Assembly (NCBI GenBank): GCA_045650505.1
Contig: JAZRRE010000030.1
Coordinates: 78,285 to 142,284, forward strand
Direction: 5' to 3'
Length of the DNA: 64,000 bases
DNA from: Clostridia bacterium
GTDB taxonomy: Bacteria > Bacillota > Clostridia > Christensenellales > UBA1242
The notes beneath the pieces are model-generated. The model saw only the letters and a program-made list of their open reading frames with translations, ran no database searches and was not told the DNA's origin. Of this stretch, positions 45,179-51,352 are shown in pieces. The position numbers and the translations under genes are program-made. Numbering within the stretch: the first letter of the stretch is position 1; each line of letters opens with the position of its first letter.

Positions 45179-47461
45179 ATGTATAGCGATTTTGGAAATA
45201 TAAACGATATGACTAAAGGTCAGTTCAACACTGCCATTGAATATTATCGTAATAAAGTGAAAATGATGAATGAAGATACATCAATTTCAGAAAGGTCAAA
45301 AGCTTGGTTTTTGGAAAGATATGAAGCAAGAATTAAGTCTCTTGAAACAACTCTTGAAAATTTGAATGTTGCAATCAACAATTCAAAAAACAGTGGCGTT
45401 TTGGTTAACGAAGAAACCATAACTTTGGGCCGACTTGGAGCCTCAACCACAGCAACAACCAATTTTGACACACTTGCTCAAAACGAACAAAGACACCGCA
45501 CTTCACAACGTTGGAAAATTGTTGGAGCTTGTCTTCTTCCTGTGGTTGGAACTATTCCATTTTTGATTAGCTGGAGAAGAGCTAAAAAAAGACACAAAGA
45601 AGTTGCTTCAAAAATCAATCAAGAAAACATTGAACTTGGCAATTTTATCAACCGTGAAAGAAGACCTTATGAGGCAACTCTTTTAACTTCAACAAAGTTT
45701 TCTGATGCCGAAAAAGCCAATCTTCTTGAAGACACAACTGAACTTCGAAGAATTGAAGCACTTGCCTTGTCTGGAACAATCACACCTATTGAAAAAACAA
45801 ATCTCACAAAGAAACTTATTGAGGTTCGTGAATTTGGTCAAAAGAACGGTTATAACGTAACCGCAATTTTAACAGACCCATCATTTAGAACAAAAGCTGA
45901 TAAAAACAACATTCAAGTAACAGCTCACGAAACCACTTATAATAGCACACTTGCAACTGCAACAAATTTAAAAGATGCTTATGATTCAATTAGAAAGCTT
46001 GAAAATTTGAGAGCAGAGGTTCAAACACTTTATAATGAAACAAAAAATAGCAGACTTGAAACCTTGCTTAACAACATTGATTCAAGAATCACAACACTTA
46101 AAAACAACGCAAAAACCGCAATCAATGCTGGTGTTAATGCAATTGTTGCTGATGTAAATGCTGTAACTGCAGCATCTGCTGATGAAGCTGGTTACACAGC
46201 AGCAATTAATACCGTTGAAGCAAGGGCGGTTGCAGCAAACGCCAACTTTGGAACAGGTGTAAATTTTGAACAAGCTCAAAAGATGGCTGAAGAGATTGGT
46301 TTTGACACTGAAAGTGCTGAATATAAGAAATTTAACGAAATCGAAAATGCAAGAGCCACCAAAAAATCTGAATTTGAAACCGAACTTAACAAAGTTAAAG
46401 GTGAAACTCAATTTAGAACAAATATTGCTGATAATATGAATGCACTTAACAATGTTTTAACAACAAAACTTAACCCTTTATCAGCGGTTGCAGACATTGA
46501 CACAAACATCAATGAAATTAATATTAAAGAAGCGTTCACATATCTTGCTGAAGCAAAATCTGCTTATGATTATTTAGAAAGCAATATCTCAAGCTTAACC
46601 GCAGCAGAAAAAGGAACTTTCACACCACTTCAAAAAGAGTATTTAGATTATAAAGCTAAACTTGAACAAAAAAATCAAGAATTTGCTTCAAAGGCTGAAA
46701 ACTTTGATAATTATAAAACTGAAATCAATTCAGCAATTGATATAACAAAAGACAAAGATACACTTTCTGGTGAACTTGAACTTTTAAAGAGCACACTTGC
46801 AATAATTGAAAGTGTTGAATATAAAGAAAAGATGAATAAAATTGGTCTTTCATCAGAGCTTAACAGATTAATCTCAACTGCAAAAACAAAAATTACTAAA
46901 TATGAAAGATTAATCACTCAAAAAGAAACCGAAGAAGAGAACACAAAACATAATGCAGAGGTTAAAGATATTCTCGATGAAAACGAAGCTATTTTAACCC
47001 CTATTCTTACAAGCATTTCATCTGGCACACCTTCAACCGATTTAATTGAACTTGCAAATTATGAACAACAAATAAATAATGTAATTACTGCACTTTCAGC
47101 AATAACAGGAACTCTTGACACTGCAAATAAAACAAGGTTAAGAACACTTTCGCAAAGTGCAAACAAATCAAGTGTTGCTGTTAAAAGACAAATTCAAGCT
47201 GCGAAAAGACCAGAAGAACTTAAAGCTTATTATCAAGGTGAAATTGAAAAAATTGAAAATGAAGTGCTTGCTTGCATTTCTAAACTTAATTCTTCAAGAA
47301 CAAAGGCACAAGCGATTAATCAATTAAGTTTATGTTCTGCAAAATTGCAAAGATTAAAATCTGCTGCAACCGCAGACCACGTAAGCCTTGATTTTGACTC
47401 ATTGCTCACAAACATTTCAGACACAATCACAAATAATCCACTTGGACCAACAGCACCATAA
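45179..47461 (+). CDS. Large helical orphan protein with one internal hydrophobic segment
   Basis: 760-aa ORF, GGAGG RBS, WKIVGACLLPVVGTIPFLISW then coiled-coil-like sequence. Confidence 0.8.
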   Translation: MYSDFGNINDMTKGQFNTAIEYYRNKVKMMNEDTSISERSKAWFLERYEARIKSLETTLENLNVAINNSKNSGVLVNEETITLGRLGASTTATTNFDTLAQNEQRHRTSQRWKIVGACLLPVVGTIPFLISWRRAKKRHKEVASKINQENIELGNFINRERRPYEATLLTSTKFSDAEKANLLEDTTELRRIEALALSGTITPIEKTNLTKKLIEVREFGQKNGYNVTAILTDPSFRTKADKNNIQVTAHETTYNSTLATATNLKDAYDSIRKLENLRAEVQTLYNETKNSRLETLLNNIDSRITTLKNNAKTAINAGVNAIVADVNAVTAASADEAGYTAAINTVEARAVAANANFGTGVNFEQAQKMAEEIGFDTESAEYKKFNEIENARATKKSEFETELNKVKGETQFRTNIADNMNALNNVLTTKLNPLSAVADIDTNINEINIKEAFTYLAEAKSAYDYLESNISSLTAAEKGTFTPLQKEYLDYKAKLEQKNQEFASKAENFDNYKTEINSAIDITKDKDTLSGELELLKSTLAIIESVEYKEKMNKIGLSSELNRLISTAKTKITKYERLITQKETEEENTKHNAEVKDILDENEAILTPILTSISSGTPSTDLIELANYEQQINNVITALSAITGTLDTANKTRLRTLSQSANKSSVAVKRQIQAAKRPEELKAYYQGEIEKIENEVLACISKLNSSRTKAQAINQLSLCSAKLQRLKSAATADHVSLDFDSLLTNISDTITNNPLGPTAP

Positions 47462-47881: not shown

Positions 47882-48706
47882 TTATTTTTTATTCTTTGAA
47901 TTTTTAGAGGTTGTTTTCACGGTGAGCTTTGCTTTTGTGGTTGCCCCTGAAACAACTTTTTTCTTGCCATTTTTTGGTTGTGTTGTTGTTTTTTTCTTTA
48001 CCGGTTTATTTTCTTCAACAACCTCATCTTTCTTTTCTTCTGCTTTTTCAATTTTTGGTTTTTCTATAGTTTCAATTTCAATTTTATTCATTAAACCAAA
48101 TTCAACTTTGATATCAGTGGTTTCATTAAGTTTTAAAAGCACTTCTCTTCCTTTAAGCACTGTAAACCATTTTTCTTCAAACACTTTTTCATCGGCAATT
48201 CTTGCTCTGTGATAAATCAAACCCGAATAAACCGAAACGATTTTTCCATCAATCACTTCTTCTTTATAATCAATTCGAATAACAGCAATCATAACCACAA
48301 ACATTAAAACTGAAAGCATCATTGAAATAATATCAACTTTTCTTTCATTAACAGTTTTAACGTGCGCAGATTTAATTTCATATCTAACACATTCATCTAA
48401 TCTCTCATACTCAATTTCACACTCTGCGAATTTTGTATAGTTAGATTCGAATAAAACAACCGGACCATATAAAAGTTCATCTTCTGCATTAAAAAATTGA
48501 AAATAAATATGGCCCCAAAGAGCATCTTCAGAAAATTCCACTTCAATTGTTTTAAAGGTTGCGGTGCTTTCTTCAAGTTTAACCTCTTTATAGTTAACAA
48601 CTTTAACATCTTCAATCTTTTCAAAAATGTCAGGAATAAACAATGTTAAAACCCAAAGACAAATTGCTGCAATTTTAACAGTCCATAGCAATATCTTTTT
48701 CTTCAT
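47882..48706 (-). CDS. Hypothetical membrane protein
   Basis: Two TM segments, Lys-rich tail; AGGAG RBS. Confidence 0.8.
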   Translation of the reverse strand: MKKKILLWTVKIAAICLWVLTLFIPDIFEKIEDVKVVNYKEVKLEESTATFKTIEVEFSEDALWGHIYFQFFNAEDELLYGPVVLFESNYTKFAECEIEYERLDECVRYEIKSAHVKTVNERKVDIISMMLSVLMFVVMIAVIRIDYKEEVIDGKIVSVYSGLIYHRARIADEKVFEEKWFTVLKGREVLLKLNETTDIKVEFGLMNKIEIETIEKPKIEKAEEKKDEVVEENKPVKKKTTTQPKNGKKKVVSGATTKAKLTVKTTSKNSKNKK

Positions 48707-48826
48707 AATATCTCCTAAAACTTTCTAGCATAAATATTTACACTAAAATTATATCATTTAATAAAATAAAACACAATATAAACTTGAACCGCCAAACAAA
48801 AAAACAACCAAAACGGTTGTTTTTTA

Positions 48827-48873: not shown

Positions 48874-49860
48874 TTAATTGTATTTTTTAAGCATTTCTTC
48901 AAGCTTAAGTTTAATTTTTTCGCGCGTTTGAACAGGCTCTAAAACTTCAATATGTTCACCATATTGAAGTGCCCAATAAACAAGAGCATCTTCATTCACC
49001 TTTAAACTTGCAAGAATTTCACCATCTTTATTCTTTTTGATAAACACATCTTTGCCGAACCAATCAATAAAATCATTGACCTTATTTTCTTTGTAAATTT
49101 TAATTTCAGCATTCACAGCCTTTCCCGCCATCATATAGATATGTTCTTTGATATAATCTTTAATGGAGAATTTTTCACCACCAGAAACACTTTCAATCGG
49201 TTTTGAATCTTCTTCAATAATTCTTGCGCCTCTAATGTTTTCAATCTTATAGTTTGAGATATCATCATATTTATCATTGTTGCAAACAAGATAATATTTT
49301 CCCCTGCTGTTAATCATAAAATATGGATTGATTTTATAAAACTTTCCATCGCCTTTGAGCACTAGTTCTTTATTAATTCCATAAGCACCATATTGAAACT
49401 CAACTTTCTTTTTCTGTTCAATAGCTGTGTTTAAAATTTCAATTGTATAAAAAATTTGCTTATTATCAAAGTCACTTCCATCATCAAACTTTTCAAGGTG
49501 ATTAAACATCTTGCGTTTAAATCTGCTAAAGCTTTTTGTGAGTTTTGTGGCTAAATCTTTAGCATATTTTGTTGGCATCGATTTTGATGAATAAATCGCG
49601 TCAATCAAAAATAAAAGCTCTCCATCTTCAAAATCACGTTCTCCAAGATATAGCCCATTTTTTCCACATTTAACAATATCAAAACCATGCTCAATCAAAA
49701 CATCAATGTTTCCTGCAATGGTTTTTCTCTCAATCTCAATTCCAAACATTTGATAAAGTTTTTCACCAATCTCATTATATGTGAGTTTGTGTTTTTCATC
49801 TGTGCTCTCTTTTAAAATTTTTAAAACATAAAGCAAACTACTCTTTTTTTCACTAGCCAT
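48874..49860 (-). CDS. WYL-domain transcriptional regulator (wHTH-WYL-WCX)
   Basis: N-terminal wHTH (TDEKHKLT..ERKTI), KVEFQY, INPY..GKYYLVC, WALQYGEHIEVLEP. Confidence 0.92.
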   Translation of the reverse strand: MASEKKSSLLYVLKILKESTDEKHKLTYNEIGEKLYQMFGIEIERKTIAGNIDVLIEHGFDIVKCGKNGLYLGERDFEDGELLFLIDAIYSSKSMPTKYAKDLATKLTKSFSRFKRKMFNHLEKFDDGSDFDNKQIFYTIEILNTAIEQKKKVEFQYGAYGINKELVLKGDGKFYKINPYFMINSRGKYYLVCNNDKYDDISNYKIENIRGARIIEEDSKPIESVSGGEKFSIKDYIKEHIYMMAGKAVNAEIKIYKENKVNDFIDWFGKDVFIKKNKDGEILASLKVNEDALVYWALQYGEHIEVLEPVQTREKIKLKLEEMLKKYN

Positions 49861-49895
49861 AATGCCTCCTATTTGTCACATTATAACACACCTTA

Positions 49896-49915
49896 AAATC
49901 CAAAATAAAGGATTT
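49896..49915. promoter_or_regulatory. Putative WYL operator 1
   Basis: AAATCC-aaaataaa-GGATTT, 10 nt upstream of minus-strand extended -10 TGtTATAAT. Confidence 0.7.
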
Positions 49916-49926
49916 AAGAGCAGTTT

Positions 49927-50193
49927 TTACGCCTCTAAATAAAAATTTTCTTTTGCATCAGCTTTAAAAACATCAAGAGTTACAAGCACTTTGCGGTTTG
50001 AAATTTTGTTCGATACATAACCAAAATTAATCATAAAATCAATATAACCCGCTGCTTTTGCATAACCCCAATGAAACTTTCTTTGCAAAAATGCTGTGCT
50101 GGCATTTTGATTTTCAATGACACATTTAACAGCGCTAATAAAATCTTTATCTTTAAAAATTTCATAAATATCAACAGTTTTTTTCTTTTCCAT
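49927..50193 (-). CDS. Stand-alone FtsK gamma (winged-helix) domain protein
   Basis: AVKCVIENQNASTAFLQRKFHWGYAKAAGYIDFMINFGYVS...RKVL matches the FtsK-gamma pattern AS.S.LQR...GY.RAA.IID.....G.V...R.VL. Confidence 0.85.
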   Translation of the reverse strand: MEKKKTVDIYEIFKDKDFISAVKCVIENQNASTAFLQRKFHWGYAKAAGYIDFMINFGYVSNKISNRKVLVTLDVFKADAKENFYLEA

Positions 50194-50442
50194 TTATGCC
50201 TCCAACATTTTCTTAAACTCATTAAAGCTAATCATTTTGTTTCCCTGATTTGAAAACTCACGCAAAAAGTTAGTGTTTGTCATATAAACCACTTTTCTCT
50301 TAACATCAATGCAAAATGGAAAACAATGTTCTTCATTATTTATCGATTTGCCATTTGCCCATTTATACCCTAAAAGTTTTAAGAATAAATAAAACTTATC
50401 TCTTTCTTTAATTTCATAACACACAACAAAACAATTTTCCAT
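50194..50442 (-). CDS. 82-aa hypothetical protein
   Basis: AAGGAG RBS; abuts FtsK-gamma gene; LGYKWANG motif. Confidence 0.75.
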   Translation of the reverse strand: MENCFVVCYEIKERDKFYLFLKLLGYKWANGKSINNEEHCFPFCIDVKRKVVYMTNTNFLREFSNQGNKMISFNEFKKMLEA

Positions 50443-50459
50443 AAAACTTCTCCTTATGC

Positions 50460-50573
50460 TTAATTTTTCTTTGCTTTTTTGTCAGCTTTTTCAAGAGCCT
50501 CAAATTCCACTTCTGCAATAGGAGTTTCATCATCCATAACTCCCCAACCCATAATCAAATCAATAATACCCAT
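50460..50573 (-). CDS. 37-aa hypothetical protein
   Basis: MGIIDLIMGWGVMDDETPIAEVEFEALEKADKKAKKN; AAGGAG RBS before ATG 50573. Confidence 0.65.
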   Translation of the reverse strand: MGIIDLIMGWGVMDDETPIAEVEFEALEKADKKAKKN

Positions 50574-50584
50574 AATTTTTCTCC

Positions 50585-50650
50585 TTATTTTCTTATTCCT
50601 AAAAAATTTATTCTCGTGTAAACAAGAAATATAACAACCATCAAAGCCAT
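50585..50650 (-). CDS. 21-aa hydrophobic peptide
   Basis: MALMVVIFLVYTRINFLGIRK; AAGGAG 8 nt upstream; its TAA overlaps the next gene's RBS (TAAGGAG). Confidence 0.55.
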   Translation of the reverse strand: MALMVVIFLVYTRINFLGIRK

Positions 50651-50688
50651 ACATATCTCTCCTTTACACCCATATAATATCATACAAT

Positions 50689-50708
50689 AAATCCCAAAAA
50701 ACGGATTT
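50689..50708. promoter_or_regulatory. Putative WYL operator 2
   Basis: AAATCC-caaaaaac-GGATTT, 9 nt upstream of minus-strand TGaTATTAT. Confidence 0.7.
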
Positions 50709-50803
50709 AAAAACTCTTTTTTAATAAATTTAAAAACTTTTACCATTTTAATAGATTGTCAAAAAGCATTATTTGTGATAAACTGAAAAGCAAGGAAAAG
50801 CTT

Positions 50804-51352
50804 ATGAAAACTAAATTTAATGAAATTATTGAAAGCTTCAAGTCTGCAACTCTTAAATTTGATAATGATGACAAAGAATATTCTTTAGCTGTCAAACAAG
50901 AGTTTGTCGGAGACCGTTTGTGTTTGAAATACACCCTTGAAGCCGGATACGAAAAAGTGGCAAGGGTTTCACTTTATTATGTTTATAACGATGAAAATGG
51001 CATTAAAAAAAGAACCTCTTTTGGTTACACAGAAGTTCCTGAAAGTATGTTTGAAATTGACCATTTTTATGTTGAACCAAAGTTTAGAAATGCCGGGATA
51101 GGCACTGCATTTTTTAATATCATTATGCAAAACATTGTTGATTTCGACAAGTCACAAAACTTAAACTCAAAACTTGTGCTTGTTAGACTAAACACACCTG
51201 AAGCCACTGCATTCTTCCAAAAATGGAATGCTCGTGAAAATGACAGATTTATTAATGAGGCAGTTCAAACAACAAGAATGATTATTGACAAGCCAAAAGT
51301 TGTTCCAGCAAAAAACTTGATTGTCACAAACAACCCTCCACAGTTTCAATAA
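50804..51352 (+). CDS. Divergent GNAT-fold protein
   Basis: IDHFYVEPKFRNAGIGT, EATAFFQKW. Confidence 0.75.
   Translation: MKTKFNEIIESFKSATLKFDNDDKEYSLAVKQEFVGDRLCLKYTLEAGYEKVARVSLYYVYNDENGIKKRTSFGYTEVPESMFEIDHFYVEPKFRNAGIGTAFFNIIMQNIVDFDKSQNLNSKLVLVRLNTPEATAFFQKWNARENDRFINEAVQTTRMIIDKPKVVPAKNLIVTNNPPQFQ

Follow-up and report, generated by a model that had tools for sequence, protein, structure and literature searches.

What does a WYL-family regulator control when the genes next to it encode two micro-proteins, a small protein of no known family and an FtsK gamma domain freed of its motor? The question is raised by a minus-strand locus in the window analysed here, a 64-kb stretch of the small genome of a gut Clostridia bacterium (C30:78285-142284 of genome G000, which comprises 1.27 Mb in 36 contigs and is 98.55 % complete). 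[quoted passage not shown] Of that reading, the layout, the common operator, the DriD/PafBC-like regulator, the linkage and the hydrophobic peptide are retained below, while the KOPS decoy and the idea of a dedicated checkpoint are not. The explanation that we prefer, with slightly better than even confidence, is an inducible unit of the DriD/PafBC type in which the regulator, called WYL-1 here, governs exchangeable small effectors, most likely as a stress and anti-invader programme.

Organisation of the locus

The gene order given in the earlier note was recovered in every item: four closely packed minus-strand open reading frames (ORFs) of 21, 37, 82 and 88 aa, each with a ribosome-binding site, are followed by a gene for a protein of winged helix-turn-helix (wHTH)-WYL-WCX type. 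Read from 50709 to 48799, the features are:

50688..50709, minus strand: operator 1, the perfect 7-N8-7 palindrome TAAATCC-GTTTTTTG-GGATTTA, at about -42 to -21 of the cassette promoter; position weight matrix (PWM) score 32.1, the genome maximum
50674..50682, minus strand: extended -10 element of the cassette promoter, TGaTATTAT, whose hexamer (50679-50674) starts 8 nt past operator 1
50585..50650, minus strand: 21-aa hydrophobic micro-ORF, MALMVVIFLVYTRINFLGIRK, the first cassette gene, with a strong Shine-Dalgarno (SD) sequence, aaaggagag
50460..50573, minus strand: 37-aa micro-protein, MGIIDLIMGWGV..ETPIAE.., SD aaggag; the conserved 'leader' gene of this promoter class
50194..50442, minus strand: 82-aa protein u82, SD aaggag; no known family, confident alpha/beta model without a known-fold match
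49927..50193, minus strand: 88-aa stand-alone FtsK_gamma winged-helix protein, gamma88, whose ATG abuts the stop codon of the 82-aa ORF
49895..49916, minus strand: operator 2, TAAATCC-TTTATTTT-GGATTTT, before the WYL gene; putative autoregulatory site with one mismatch, PWM score 30.0
49880..49888, minus strand: extended -10 element of the WYL promoter, TGtTATAAT, whose hexamer starts 9 nt past operator 2
48874..49860, minus strand: 328-aa wHTH-WYL-WCX regulator WYL-1, SD aggagg; Pfam WYL and WCX
48799..48825, minus strand: hairpin with a T-run, a terminator-like site 3' of the WYL gene; the stem is palindromic, and stem and T-run are also found on the minus strand

A Shine-Dalgarno sequence is present at every one of the five ORFs. 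The spacer between gamma88 and WYL-1 measures 66 nt and contains operator 2; a terminator scan found no terminator-like site between the two genes. Judged by its sequence, the hairpin at 48799-48825 is the likely end of the transcription unit.

An operator at the -35 position

That both promoters carry one and the same palindrome, as had been claimed, is borne out by copies at 50688-50709 (no mismatch) and 49895-49916 (one mismatch). A search for TAAATCC-N8-GGATTTA with up to two mismatches returned exactly these 2 matches in the 64-kb window, both in intergenic promoter regions; shuffled windows gave a mean of 0.38 matches, and 5 of 100 shuffles reached 2. When the whole genome was scanned with a PWM built from 13 operator sites at loci L010-L021, the two window sites again ranked highest (32.1 and 30.0). 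A consensus promoter scan detected no two-hexamer (-35/-10) promoter at either the cassette or the WYL promoter. The operator covers about -42 to -21, with its proximal half-site at about -27 to -21 and a T-rich gap, and there is no -35 element. An extended -10 (TGn) is found at most operator-bearing sites, and extended -10 promoters can work without a -35 element.

The distance between operator and -10 element hardly varies. The core motif xxxxTCC-GTTTTTT(T/G)-GG(A/G)xxxx, searched as a regular expression, has 7 sites in G000, and TAnnnT follows after 8 nt at all seven; the WYL-1 promoter is a spacer variant of it. In the 13 listed PWM sites of the genome the distance is 8 nt at 11 and 9-10 nt at the other 2. 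Of the genus's 21 genomes, 10 contain the full pattern, with 22 occurrences in total (0 for a reversed-pattern control), and it is present in 8 of 12 WYL-positive vs 1 of 8 WYL-negative relatives, which are kin and not independent. Autoregulatory-type sites stand before the WYL orthologues at L010, L011, L014, L016, L018, L019 and L021, that is at 7 of the 30 WYL loci scanned, most of which hold distant homologues. Wiring in which a WYL dimer regulates its own gene and controls a second promoter is thus well supported by the sequence comparisons.

This geometry agrees with the one published for WYL activators. According to the available text of the papers cited here, DriD sites lie over the -35 position, with a constant spacing to the -10 element, in promoters without a -35 (PMC13004042); the site is a palindrome with an A/T-rich gap, and a site in the regulator's own promoter is reported for 68 of 69 DriD homologues (PMC10853764). 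PafBC promoters likewise have no -35 and combine a canonical -10 with a -26 element at -23 to -28 (PMC8635444), the region in which the proximal half-site lies here. With DriD the locus shares the A/T-rich gap, the site in the regulator's own promoter and a placement over the missing -35 that keeps its spacing to the -10 constant. The two differ in spacing (7-N7-7 in DriD, 7-N8-7 here) and in half-site, which is CGAC-type in DriD and AAATCC here.

The regulator

WYL-1 matches Pfam WYL (PF13280, 37.7 bits, cut-off 21.8; 40.8 bits in the whole-genome scan) and WCX (PF25583, 33.1 bits, cut-off 23.9), and its N-terminus has no Pfam HTH match. An AlphaFold2 (AF2) model built from 23 homologues (pLDDT 81.3, pTM 0.49) places a winged helix at the N-terminus (helices 28-39 and 45-57, then a beta-hairpin at 61-74), followed by three linker helices within 79-119, a WYL beta-domain and a C-terminal alpha/beta domain. 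The linker helices span residues 79-91, 97-108 and 113-119, where pLDDT is 67-81; it falls to 39 in the block 121-130. For DriD a three-helix bundle is described in this region (PMC10853764).

In a Foldseek comparison of this model with the PDB, DriD of Caulobacter crescentus comes first (8tp8, E 5e-15, TM-score 0.52, 15 % identity), followed by PafBC (9fnd, E 4e-12), CapW (9c5g, E 7e-9) and BrxR (7qfz, E 5e-8). The full-length alignments to all four take in the winged helix of WYL-1, which remains a prediction-level statement. By sequence alone, nothing in the PDB matches WYL-1 at E <=0.1. DriD and PafBC therefore appear, on the predicted fold, to be the closest to it, and the earlier assignment to a regulator of this kind is upheld at the level of the model. 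The likeness to DriD comprises a homodimer-type architecture of wHTH, helical linker, WYL and WCX. It extends to the output, in that the DriD regulon (didA, bapE, driD and others) and the predicted targets here both include small effector proteins. The differences are the 15 % identity, the Clostridia host, and the genes behind the sites, which here are micro-peptides, gamma-domain proteins and defence genes, with no site at a repair gene such as recA; no DidA homologue was identified. PafBC of mycobacteria, associated with sigma adaptation and the second-best structural match, is a PafB-PafC heterodimer (PMC13004042) that uses a single -26 element, whereas here one gene is combined with a two-fold symmetric operator, and a homodimer is therefore implied for WYL-1.

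Activator and repressor classes of WYL regulators are both reported to sense ssDNA (PMC11662680). By analogy, ssDNA is the input that we infer for WYL-1.

Activation or de-repression

Much of this would also suit a CapW/BrxR-type repressor that occludes extended -10 promoters and is released by ssDNA, in which case the locus would be a de-repressible module of a defence island. CapW and BrxR are ssDNA-responsive repressors of defence systems (PMC11662680), they belong to the same wHTH-WYL-WCX family with a palindromic operator of ~20 bp, and they control anti-phage genes; the regulon described below includes UzuA, HEC-05-like and IetA-like genes, with a PtuA-like gene in G008. The PADLOC models for CRISPR-associated (generic) WYL proteins match WYL-1 with 90.4 bits, and extended -10 elements stand at most of the sites. 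Several features nevertheless speak for another class. The Foldseek E-values of DriD and PafBC lie 4-7 orders of magnitude ahead of those of CapW/BrxR (7e-9 to 2e-7), and the 328 aa of WYL-1, and tentatively its three modelled linker helices, match DriD and not the ~266-290 aa and two-helix linker of CapW/BrxR. The fixed distance from operator to -10 (7/7 sites; 8 nt in 11/13) is what activation from one face of the helix needs, whereas occlusion would tolerate variation, and the available text of PMC11662680 describes no such activator-like promoter geometry for these repressors. We regard the repressor reading as rather doubtful.

On the narrower matter of the sign of regulation, activation is somewhat favoured over CapW-type de-repression for WYL-1: the spacing is fixed, the fold resembles DriD/PafBC and a -35 is missing. 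What favours de-repression is the frequency of TGn extended -10 elements and the fact that those defence-linked WYL regulators that have been described are repressors.

Defence genes behind the same promoter class

After the two sites of the window, the operator-type sites that rank next in the genome, and two sites with variant half-sites, are:

C3:85781: operator-type site, PWM 28.4, at the contig end
C25:18660: operator-type site, PWM 27.7, TATAAT after 8 nt; upstream of a 131-aa protein (C25:18660-19145; L043, L069)
C3:41038: operator-type site, PWM 27.0; upstream of a 78-aa gamma-like protein (FtsK_gamma 25.5 bits, below cut-off)
C3:35135: variant operator with TGTCC-type half-sites; upstream of an IetA-like AAA+/peptidase_M41 protein, a metallophosphatase, WYL-2, a 228-aa protein and a UzuA GIY-YIG protein
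C3:39908: variant operator with TGTCC-type half-sites; upstream of a HEC-05-like protein

PADLOC matches on contig C3 comprise UzuA, the HEC-05-like protein (338 aa, covering the C-terminal half of the model only) and the IetA-like protein. Taken from the sequence, the promoter class of the cassette is one that also precedes recognised anti-phage genes in the same genome. The 131-aa gene on C25 is a candidate further member of the regulon; its product matches no Pfam, PADLOC or NCBIfam family. For the gene behind C3:85781, contig-end joining gave no overlaps.

The segment C3:35135-41337 (L044, L055, L063, L066) is a defence island with three operator-type promoters and a second regulator, WYL-2, of 343 aa and 51 % identical to WYL-1. 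Directly upstream of this island, at C3:33617-35050 (L044:618-2051), lies a gene for a 189-aa protein that ends in a barnase-type ribonuclease domain. Next to it stand three barstar-like genes in tandem (98, 93 and 92 aa), the first of which alone is Pfam-confirmed; the arrangement looks like a toxin with an array of immunity genes.

In the genome scan, no operator with a PWM score of at least 13 was found at recA, uvr or similar repair genes. A general SOS-like regulon was dropped as a candidate for this reason.

Exchange of cargo within the genus

WYL homologues are patchily distributed, in 25 of 61 related genomes and 12 of the 20 congeners. Ten WYL-1-type loci (L010-L019, at least 56 % identity, with 1.5-kb flanks) were compared. 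The 33-39-aa peptide is present in 6 of them (phmmer) and in two other operator-driven operons (L061, L065), the 21-aa-type hydrophobic ORF in 4, and u82 in 3 (twice in L012). Gamma was found by phmmer in 4, the L012 copy forming the C-terminus of a 205-aa protein, and L016 has a gamma-like gene in addition, so that gamma is missing from 5-6 of the 10. Three of the ten have no cassette, and in G020 its place is taken by genes for 98 and 61 aa that are unrelated to the cassette genes.

Other cargo stands behind further copies of the operator. In G008 (L065) the 33-39-aa peptide is followed by an AAA_21/PtuA-like ATPase, and in G003 a HEC-05-like gene is followed by an 81-aa gamma-like protein. 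In G001, one operator stands before two FtsK_SpoIIIE ATPases without further FtsK parts (105 and 44 bits), and a second before a 207-aa protein whose C-terminus is an FtsK_gamma domain (41.8 bits). These ATPases, of ~263-280 aa and encoded at G001:C2:279590-283000 (L051, L060, L076, L081), show PADLOC similarity to the SspH C-terminal and mad8 models; the set, which lies ~9 kb from the WYL gene, has the look of a 'split FtsK' with promoters of the WYL type. FtsK-type ATPases of short length were found in G001, G004 and G012, and not in G000.

Gamma copies beyond that of FtsK are found in 8 of the 21 genus genomes, 7 of these WYL-positive; outside the genus, 2 of 40 genomes have such copies, which score under the Pfam cut-off. 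Those of G000, G002, G003, G004 and G012 lie <600 nt from a WYL gene, while the distance is up to 9 kb in G001, in G008 and on contig C3 of G000. The co-localisation of solo or short gamma genes with WYL, about which the earlier note asked, is thus recurrent within the genus, in 7 genomes. What is linked is not one fixed operon: a type of cargo goes together with a system made up of promoter and regulator. Among the congeners compared, the regulator, the operator-promoter and the two micro-peptides are the stable parts, and the downstream cargo is exchanged.

The stand-alone gamma protein

The description of the 88-aa ORF as a solo FtsK gamma domain proved correct. Its score against Pfam FtsK_gamma, 53.1 bits, is above the cut-off of 30.6, and its winged helix can be aligned in full with the gamma domain of E. 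coli FtsK (PDB 2j5p, E 0.0011), as well as with P. aeruginosa gamma structures. A decayed ftsK fragment is ruled out by 12 relatives (61-91 % identity), all of 87-90 aa, and by the full 993-aa FtsK that G000 keeps elsewhere in the genome with a gamma domain of its own (85.6 bits). When genome contigs were searched with the 88-aa protein, 5 loci were returned, of which only L005 was read as a solo orthologue; L006, L007 and L009 are full-length FtsK genes of other Clostridia, and L008 is a 1.6-kb contig with the same 42 % match.

The gamma domains of FtsK/SpoIIIE, which read KOPS or SpoIIIE recognition sequences and activate XerD, are attached to an alpha-beta motor. In contrast, gamma88 has no motor, being an 88-aa ORF with its own SD and start. 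In E. coli, N1296, R1300 and E1303 are the residues implicated in KOPS recognition (PMC2533119). Mapped onto the 2j5p alignment by the N-x3-R-x2-E pattern, these positions read A/G/D in gamma88, with two of the three lost, and S/K/D in the organism's own FtsK. In the family of 13 sequences the first two positions vary, that of R1300 reading G/D/S/N/A/M, and the invariant motifs are an N-terminal DIxEIFKDKDFI and a C-terminal DAKENFY, both outside the recognition helix. The recognition helix itself varies within the family. Since the conserved surface is not on this DNA-reading helix, the KOPS-masking decoy of the earlier note is disfavoured and must be called unlikely; the most likely mode of action of gamma88 is by contacts with proteins or by a DNA specificity that is new. 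Judged by sequence, it is a genuine stand-alone gamma-fold protein that has neither the motor attachment nor the KOPS-reading residues. Prediction of a u82-gamma88 complex gave a score of 0.00 in two runs against a mark of 0.32, without a verdict, and is evidence neither way.

A third gamma gene of the genome, at C11:21772-22044 (L002, L048), encodes a 90-aa solo FtsK_gamma protein (55.5 bits) in which the R1300 position is still basic. The gene is placed directly upstream of those for a 265-aa exonuclease III-like and a 362-aa S-adenosylmethionine synthetase-like protein, both named by eye. The contig ends 25 nt upstream of this gene, leaving its promoter unseen.

Micro-peptides and u82

Related hydrophobic ORFs of 20-22 aa occupy the same position as the 21-aa ORF at L011, L013 and L016; NCBIfam has no family for the 21-aa ORF. 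The 37-aa family has an invariant N-terminus of 11 residues, MGIIDLIMGWG, and an invariant ETP in its 8 copies. Its codons differ synonymously in 164 and non-synonymously in 177 cases (28 pairs), and so many synonymous differences support translation. Only 5 other clusters were found for the 37-aa protein among 5.8 billion proteins, with nothing in NCBIfam and no usable match in the ESM Atlas.

Inhibitors of the DidA/SidA type are small damage-induced membrane proteins that block late divisome proteins. A small hydrophobic peptide as the opener of the cassette, as the earlier note proposed, fits this theme: the 21-aa type is conserved and lies directly behind a WYL operator, which hints at the first half of that description, a small membrane protein induced by a damage regulator. 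By this analogy, a DidA-like arrest role is possible for the micro-peptides.

The 82-aa protein, u82, matches no Pfam, PHROG, PADLOC or NCBIfam family, and it has few relatives by sequence: a search of 1.84 billion representatives gave 12 hits, one a spurious repeat protein. Its AF2 model is confident (pLDDT 92.8), with strands at 4-8, 43-46 and 51-54 and helices at 11-23, 57-65 and 73-81. Foldseek found no PDB entry at E <=0.001 (best E 1.7), VIA-align reached at best Z 3.7 over 48,161 chains, and the best BFVD match has E 0.21, a few phage proteins of ~80 aa giving TM-scores of ~0.6 as leads only. The model thus points to a novel fold, with Atlas and BFVD leads that weakly suggest small phage proteins.

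A division checkpoint?

How much of the proposed checkpoint can then be kept? The DriD-like regulator and promoter agree with it, and so do the conserved 21-aa hydrophobic and 37-aa peptides as first genes; DriD itself induces the small division inhibitor DidA (PMC10853764). G000 holds a single tyrosine recombinase, which could be a Xer enzyme. LexA_DNA_bind and Peptidase_S24 have no match in the 98.55 %-complete G000, in which RecA is present. Against a dedicated checkpoint stand the exchange of cargo between congeners, with gamma missing from about half of the loci, the KOPS positions already mentioned, the same promoters in front of anti-phage genes, and the presence of the regulator in only 12 of 20 congeners without complementarity to the loss of LexA. 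Peptidase_S24 is found in 10 of these 20, vs 46 of 61 in the whole sample including G000. Split by WYL and LexA, the congeners number 5 with WYL only, 7 with both, 5 with neither and 3 with LexA only. Taken together, a dedicated division checkpoint now looks quite improbable. The idea of WYL as a replacement for LexA was dropped as well, Peptidase_S24 and WYL showing no anticorrelation among the 20 congeners.

A mobile origin?

Some observations on the effectors recall phages. PHROG families match gamma88 (phrog_13700 at 8e-8, for example), and tblastn with gamma88 gave 5 phage records (40-44 % identity over 54-69 residues), including Bacillus phages with a gamma-bearing small terminase; in Sam46 and Sam112 the small terminase is described as carrying an N-terminal FtsK_gamma domain (PMC8190038). 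Such proteins resemble gamma88 in being small gamma-only or gamma-fused proteins outside FtsK. In addition, the ESM Atlas look-alikes of u82 are mostly unnamed viral clusters (0.88-0.89, below the lead threshold of 0.9), and the WYL-1 orthologues have differing neighbourhoods in most congeners. The cassette could on these grounds be a remnant of a phage or mobile element, and gamma88 a phage-type solo gamma or a small-terminase-like DNA-binding protein. The gamma88 gene is, however, on the chromosome, linked to WYL and not accompanied by terminase genes. Phage genes such as those for integrase, terminase or capsid are missing from the flanks of the locus, and the sole tyrosine recombinase of the assembly is on another contig. 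The flanks are syntenic from G000 to G003 and partly in G020, these being the only genomes that share them, and the G+C content of the cassette (0.29-0.31) is close to that of the 64-kb window (0.29-0.36). A remnant is accordingly the least of our expectations, and very improbable.

Proposed mode of action

For the inducible unit that we prefer, the following course of events can be proposed. A WYL-1 dimer would bind the 22-bp palindrome in the -35 region (~-42 to -21), fixed 8-9 nt from the extended -10, with one copy at its own promoter and one at that of the cassette. As judged from the family, the expected input would be ssDNA arising from DNA damage or from the replication of phages or mobile elements. 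Upon this signal both promoters would fire, by activation if WYL-1 is DriD/PafBC-like, and yield the 21-aa membrane-type peptide, the 37-aa micro-protein, the 82-aa protein of novel fold and the 88-aa motor-less gamma winged helix. The output might, for example, be an arrest of growth or of membrane functions combined with small effectors directed at DNA. The unit is modular: several types of gamma have been seen as its cargo, as have paralogues of u82, small proteins unrelated to these, a PtuA-like ATPase and motor ATPases resembling FtsK. It would form part of a regulon that extends across the genus and takes in phage defence.

Several points weigh against this proposal. A search of sequencing runs for the locus gave 5 runs of DNA type (shares 0.05-0.08) and 0 RNA runs, and the functional steps are all inferred. 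The defence link is one of guilt by association, as no scanned cassette protein matches PADLOC (the scan covered gamma88 and u82, with matches to 0 families, and WYL-1, but neither of the 21-aa and 37-aa peptides), and with its repair genes free of sites at the PWM threshold given above the system is not a general SOS substitute. The WYL-1 model is moderately confident, with a TM-score of ~0.5 and 15 % identity to DriD and no PDB match by sequence. The placement of the operator over the -35 position is that of the DriD/PafBC class, yet a repressor could use the same site, and with extended -10s an occluding repressor of the CapW/BrxR type fits the same sequence. The defence-associated WYL regulators described so far are repressors (PMC11662680), and the regulon here includes defence genes. 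Either of WYL-1 and WYL-2 may bind either operator variant (AAATCC or TGTCC half-sites), and the congeners are related genomes and not independent observations.

Relation to known systems

Both for damage responses that are independent of SOS (DriD, PafBC) and for the induction of phage defence (CapW, BrxR), the ssDNA sensor increasingly turns out to be a WYL regulator. The present locus offers a compact example from Clostridia, in which a DriD-like regulator, a stereotyped activator-type promoter and exchangeable small effectors can be read from the DNA. The logic of the regulator is already known; for the cargo, i.e., the micro-peptides, u82 and the WYL-linked solo gamma, no description was found in the literature searched. 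As the earlier note had supposed, the open literature (subscription journals and supplementary files lay outside the search) yielded no description of WYL-linked solo gamma proteins; one paper that combines WYL with FtsK concerns, in its available text, HerA/FtsK motors in BREX-related systems and not gamma domains. An activator-type WYL regulator in front of defence genes, for which the same literature likewise gave no description, may be present here, and the locus may in this way bridge the damage-response and the defence-associated WYL regulators. Parts amenable to testing are the two conserved micro-proteins, u82 with its confident and unmatched fold, and the family of motor-less FtsK gamma proteins.

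A bolder idea, for us a long shot, is that this genus has, as it were, dismantled FtsK into modules that can be induced separately from it. An ssDNA-sensing WYL activator would then switch on free gamma proteins and, from the same promoter in some genomes, free motor ATPases. On DNA that is damaged or invading, these would block the translocation of DNA or Xer recombination, or direct either to new targets, while the 33-39-aa peptide (MGIIDLIMGWG...) would be the universal first effector, a DidA-like arrest factor. If true, this would amount to a new principle of defence or checkpoint control, made from parts of the chromosome segregation machinery and driven by an activator-type WYL regulator.

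Neighbouring genes

Divergent from the cassette promoter, an ORF on the plus strand (window 50756-51352) encodes a GNAT-type acetyltransferase with a weak Pfam match (Acetyltransf_1, 21.7 bits, cut-off 20.7). It is found in G000 and G003 and is missing in G020, where a gene for an FMN reductase abuts the cassette. The downstream flank of the WYL gene includes a plus-strand gene for a 760-aa protein (window 45179-47461), of coiled-coil appearance by eye only, and a minus-strand gene for a 274-aa protein (window 47882-48706) with no Pfam or PHROG match, which has the look of a membrane protein and a lysine-rich tail. The 274-aa gene adjoins the WYL gene in G003 too, with 49 % identity.

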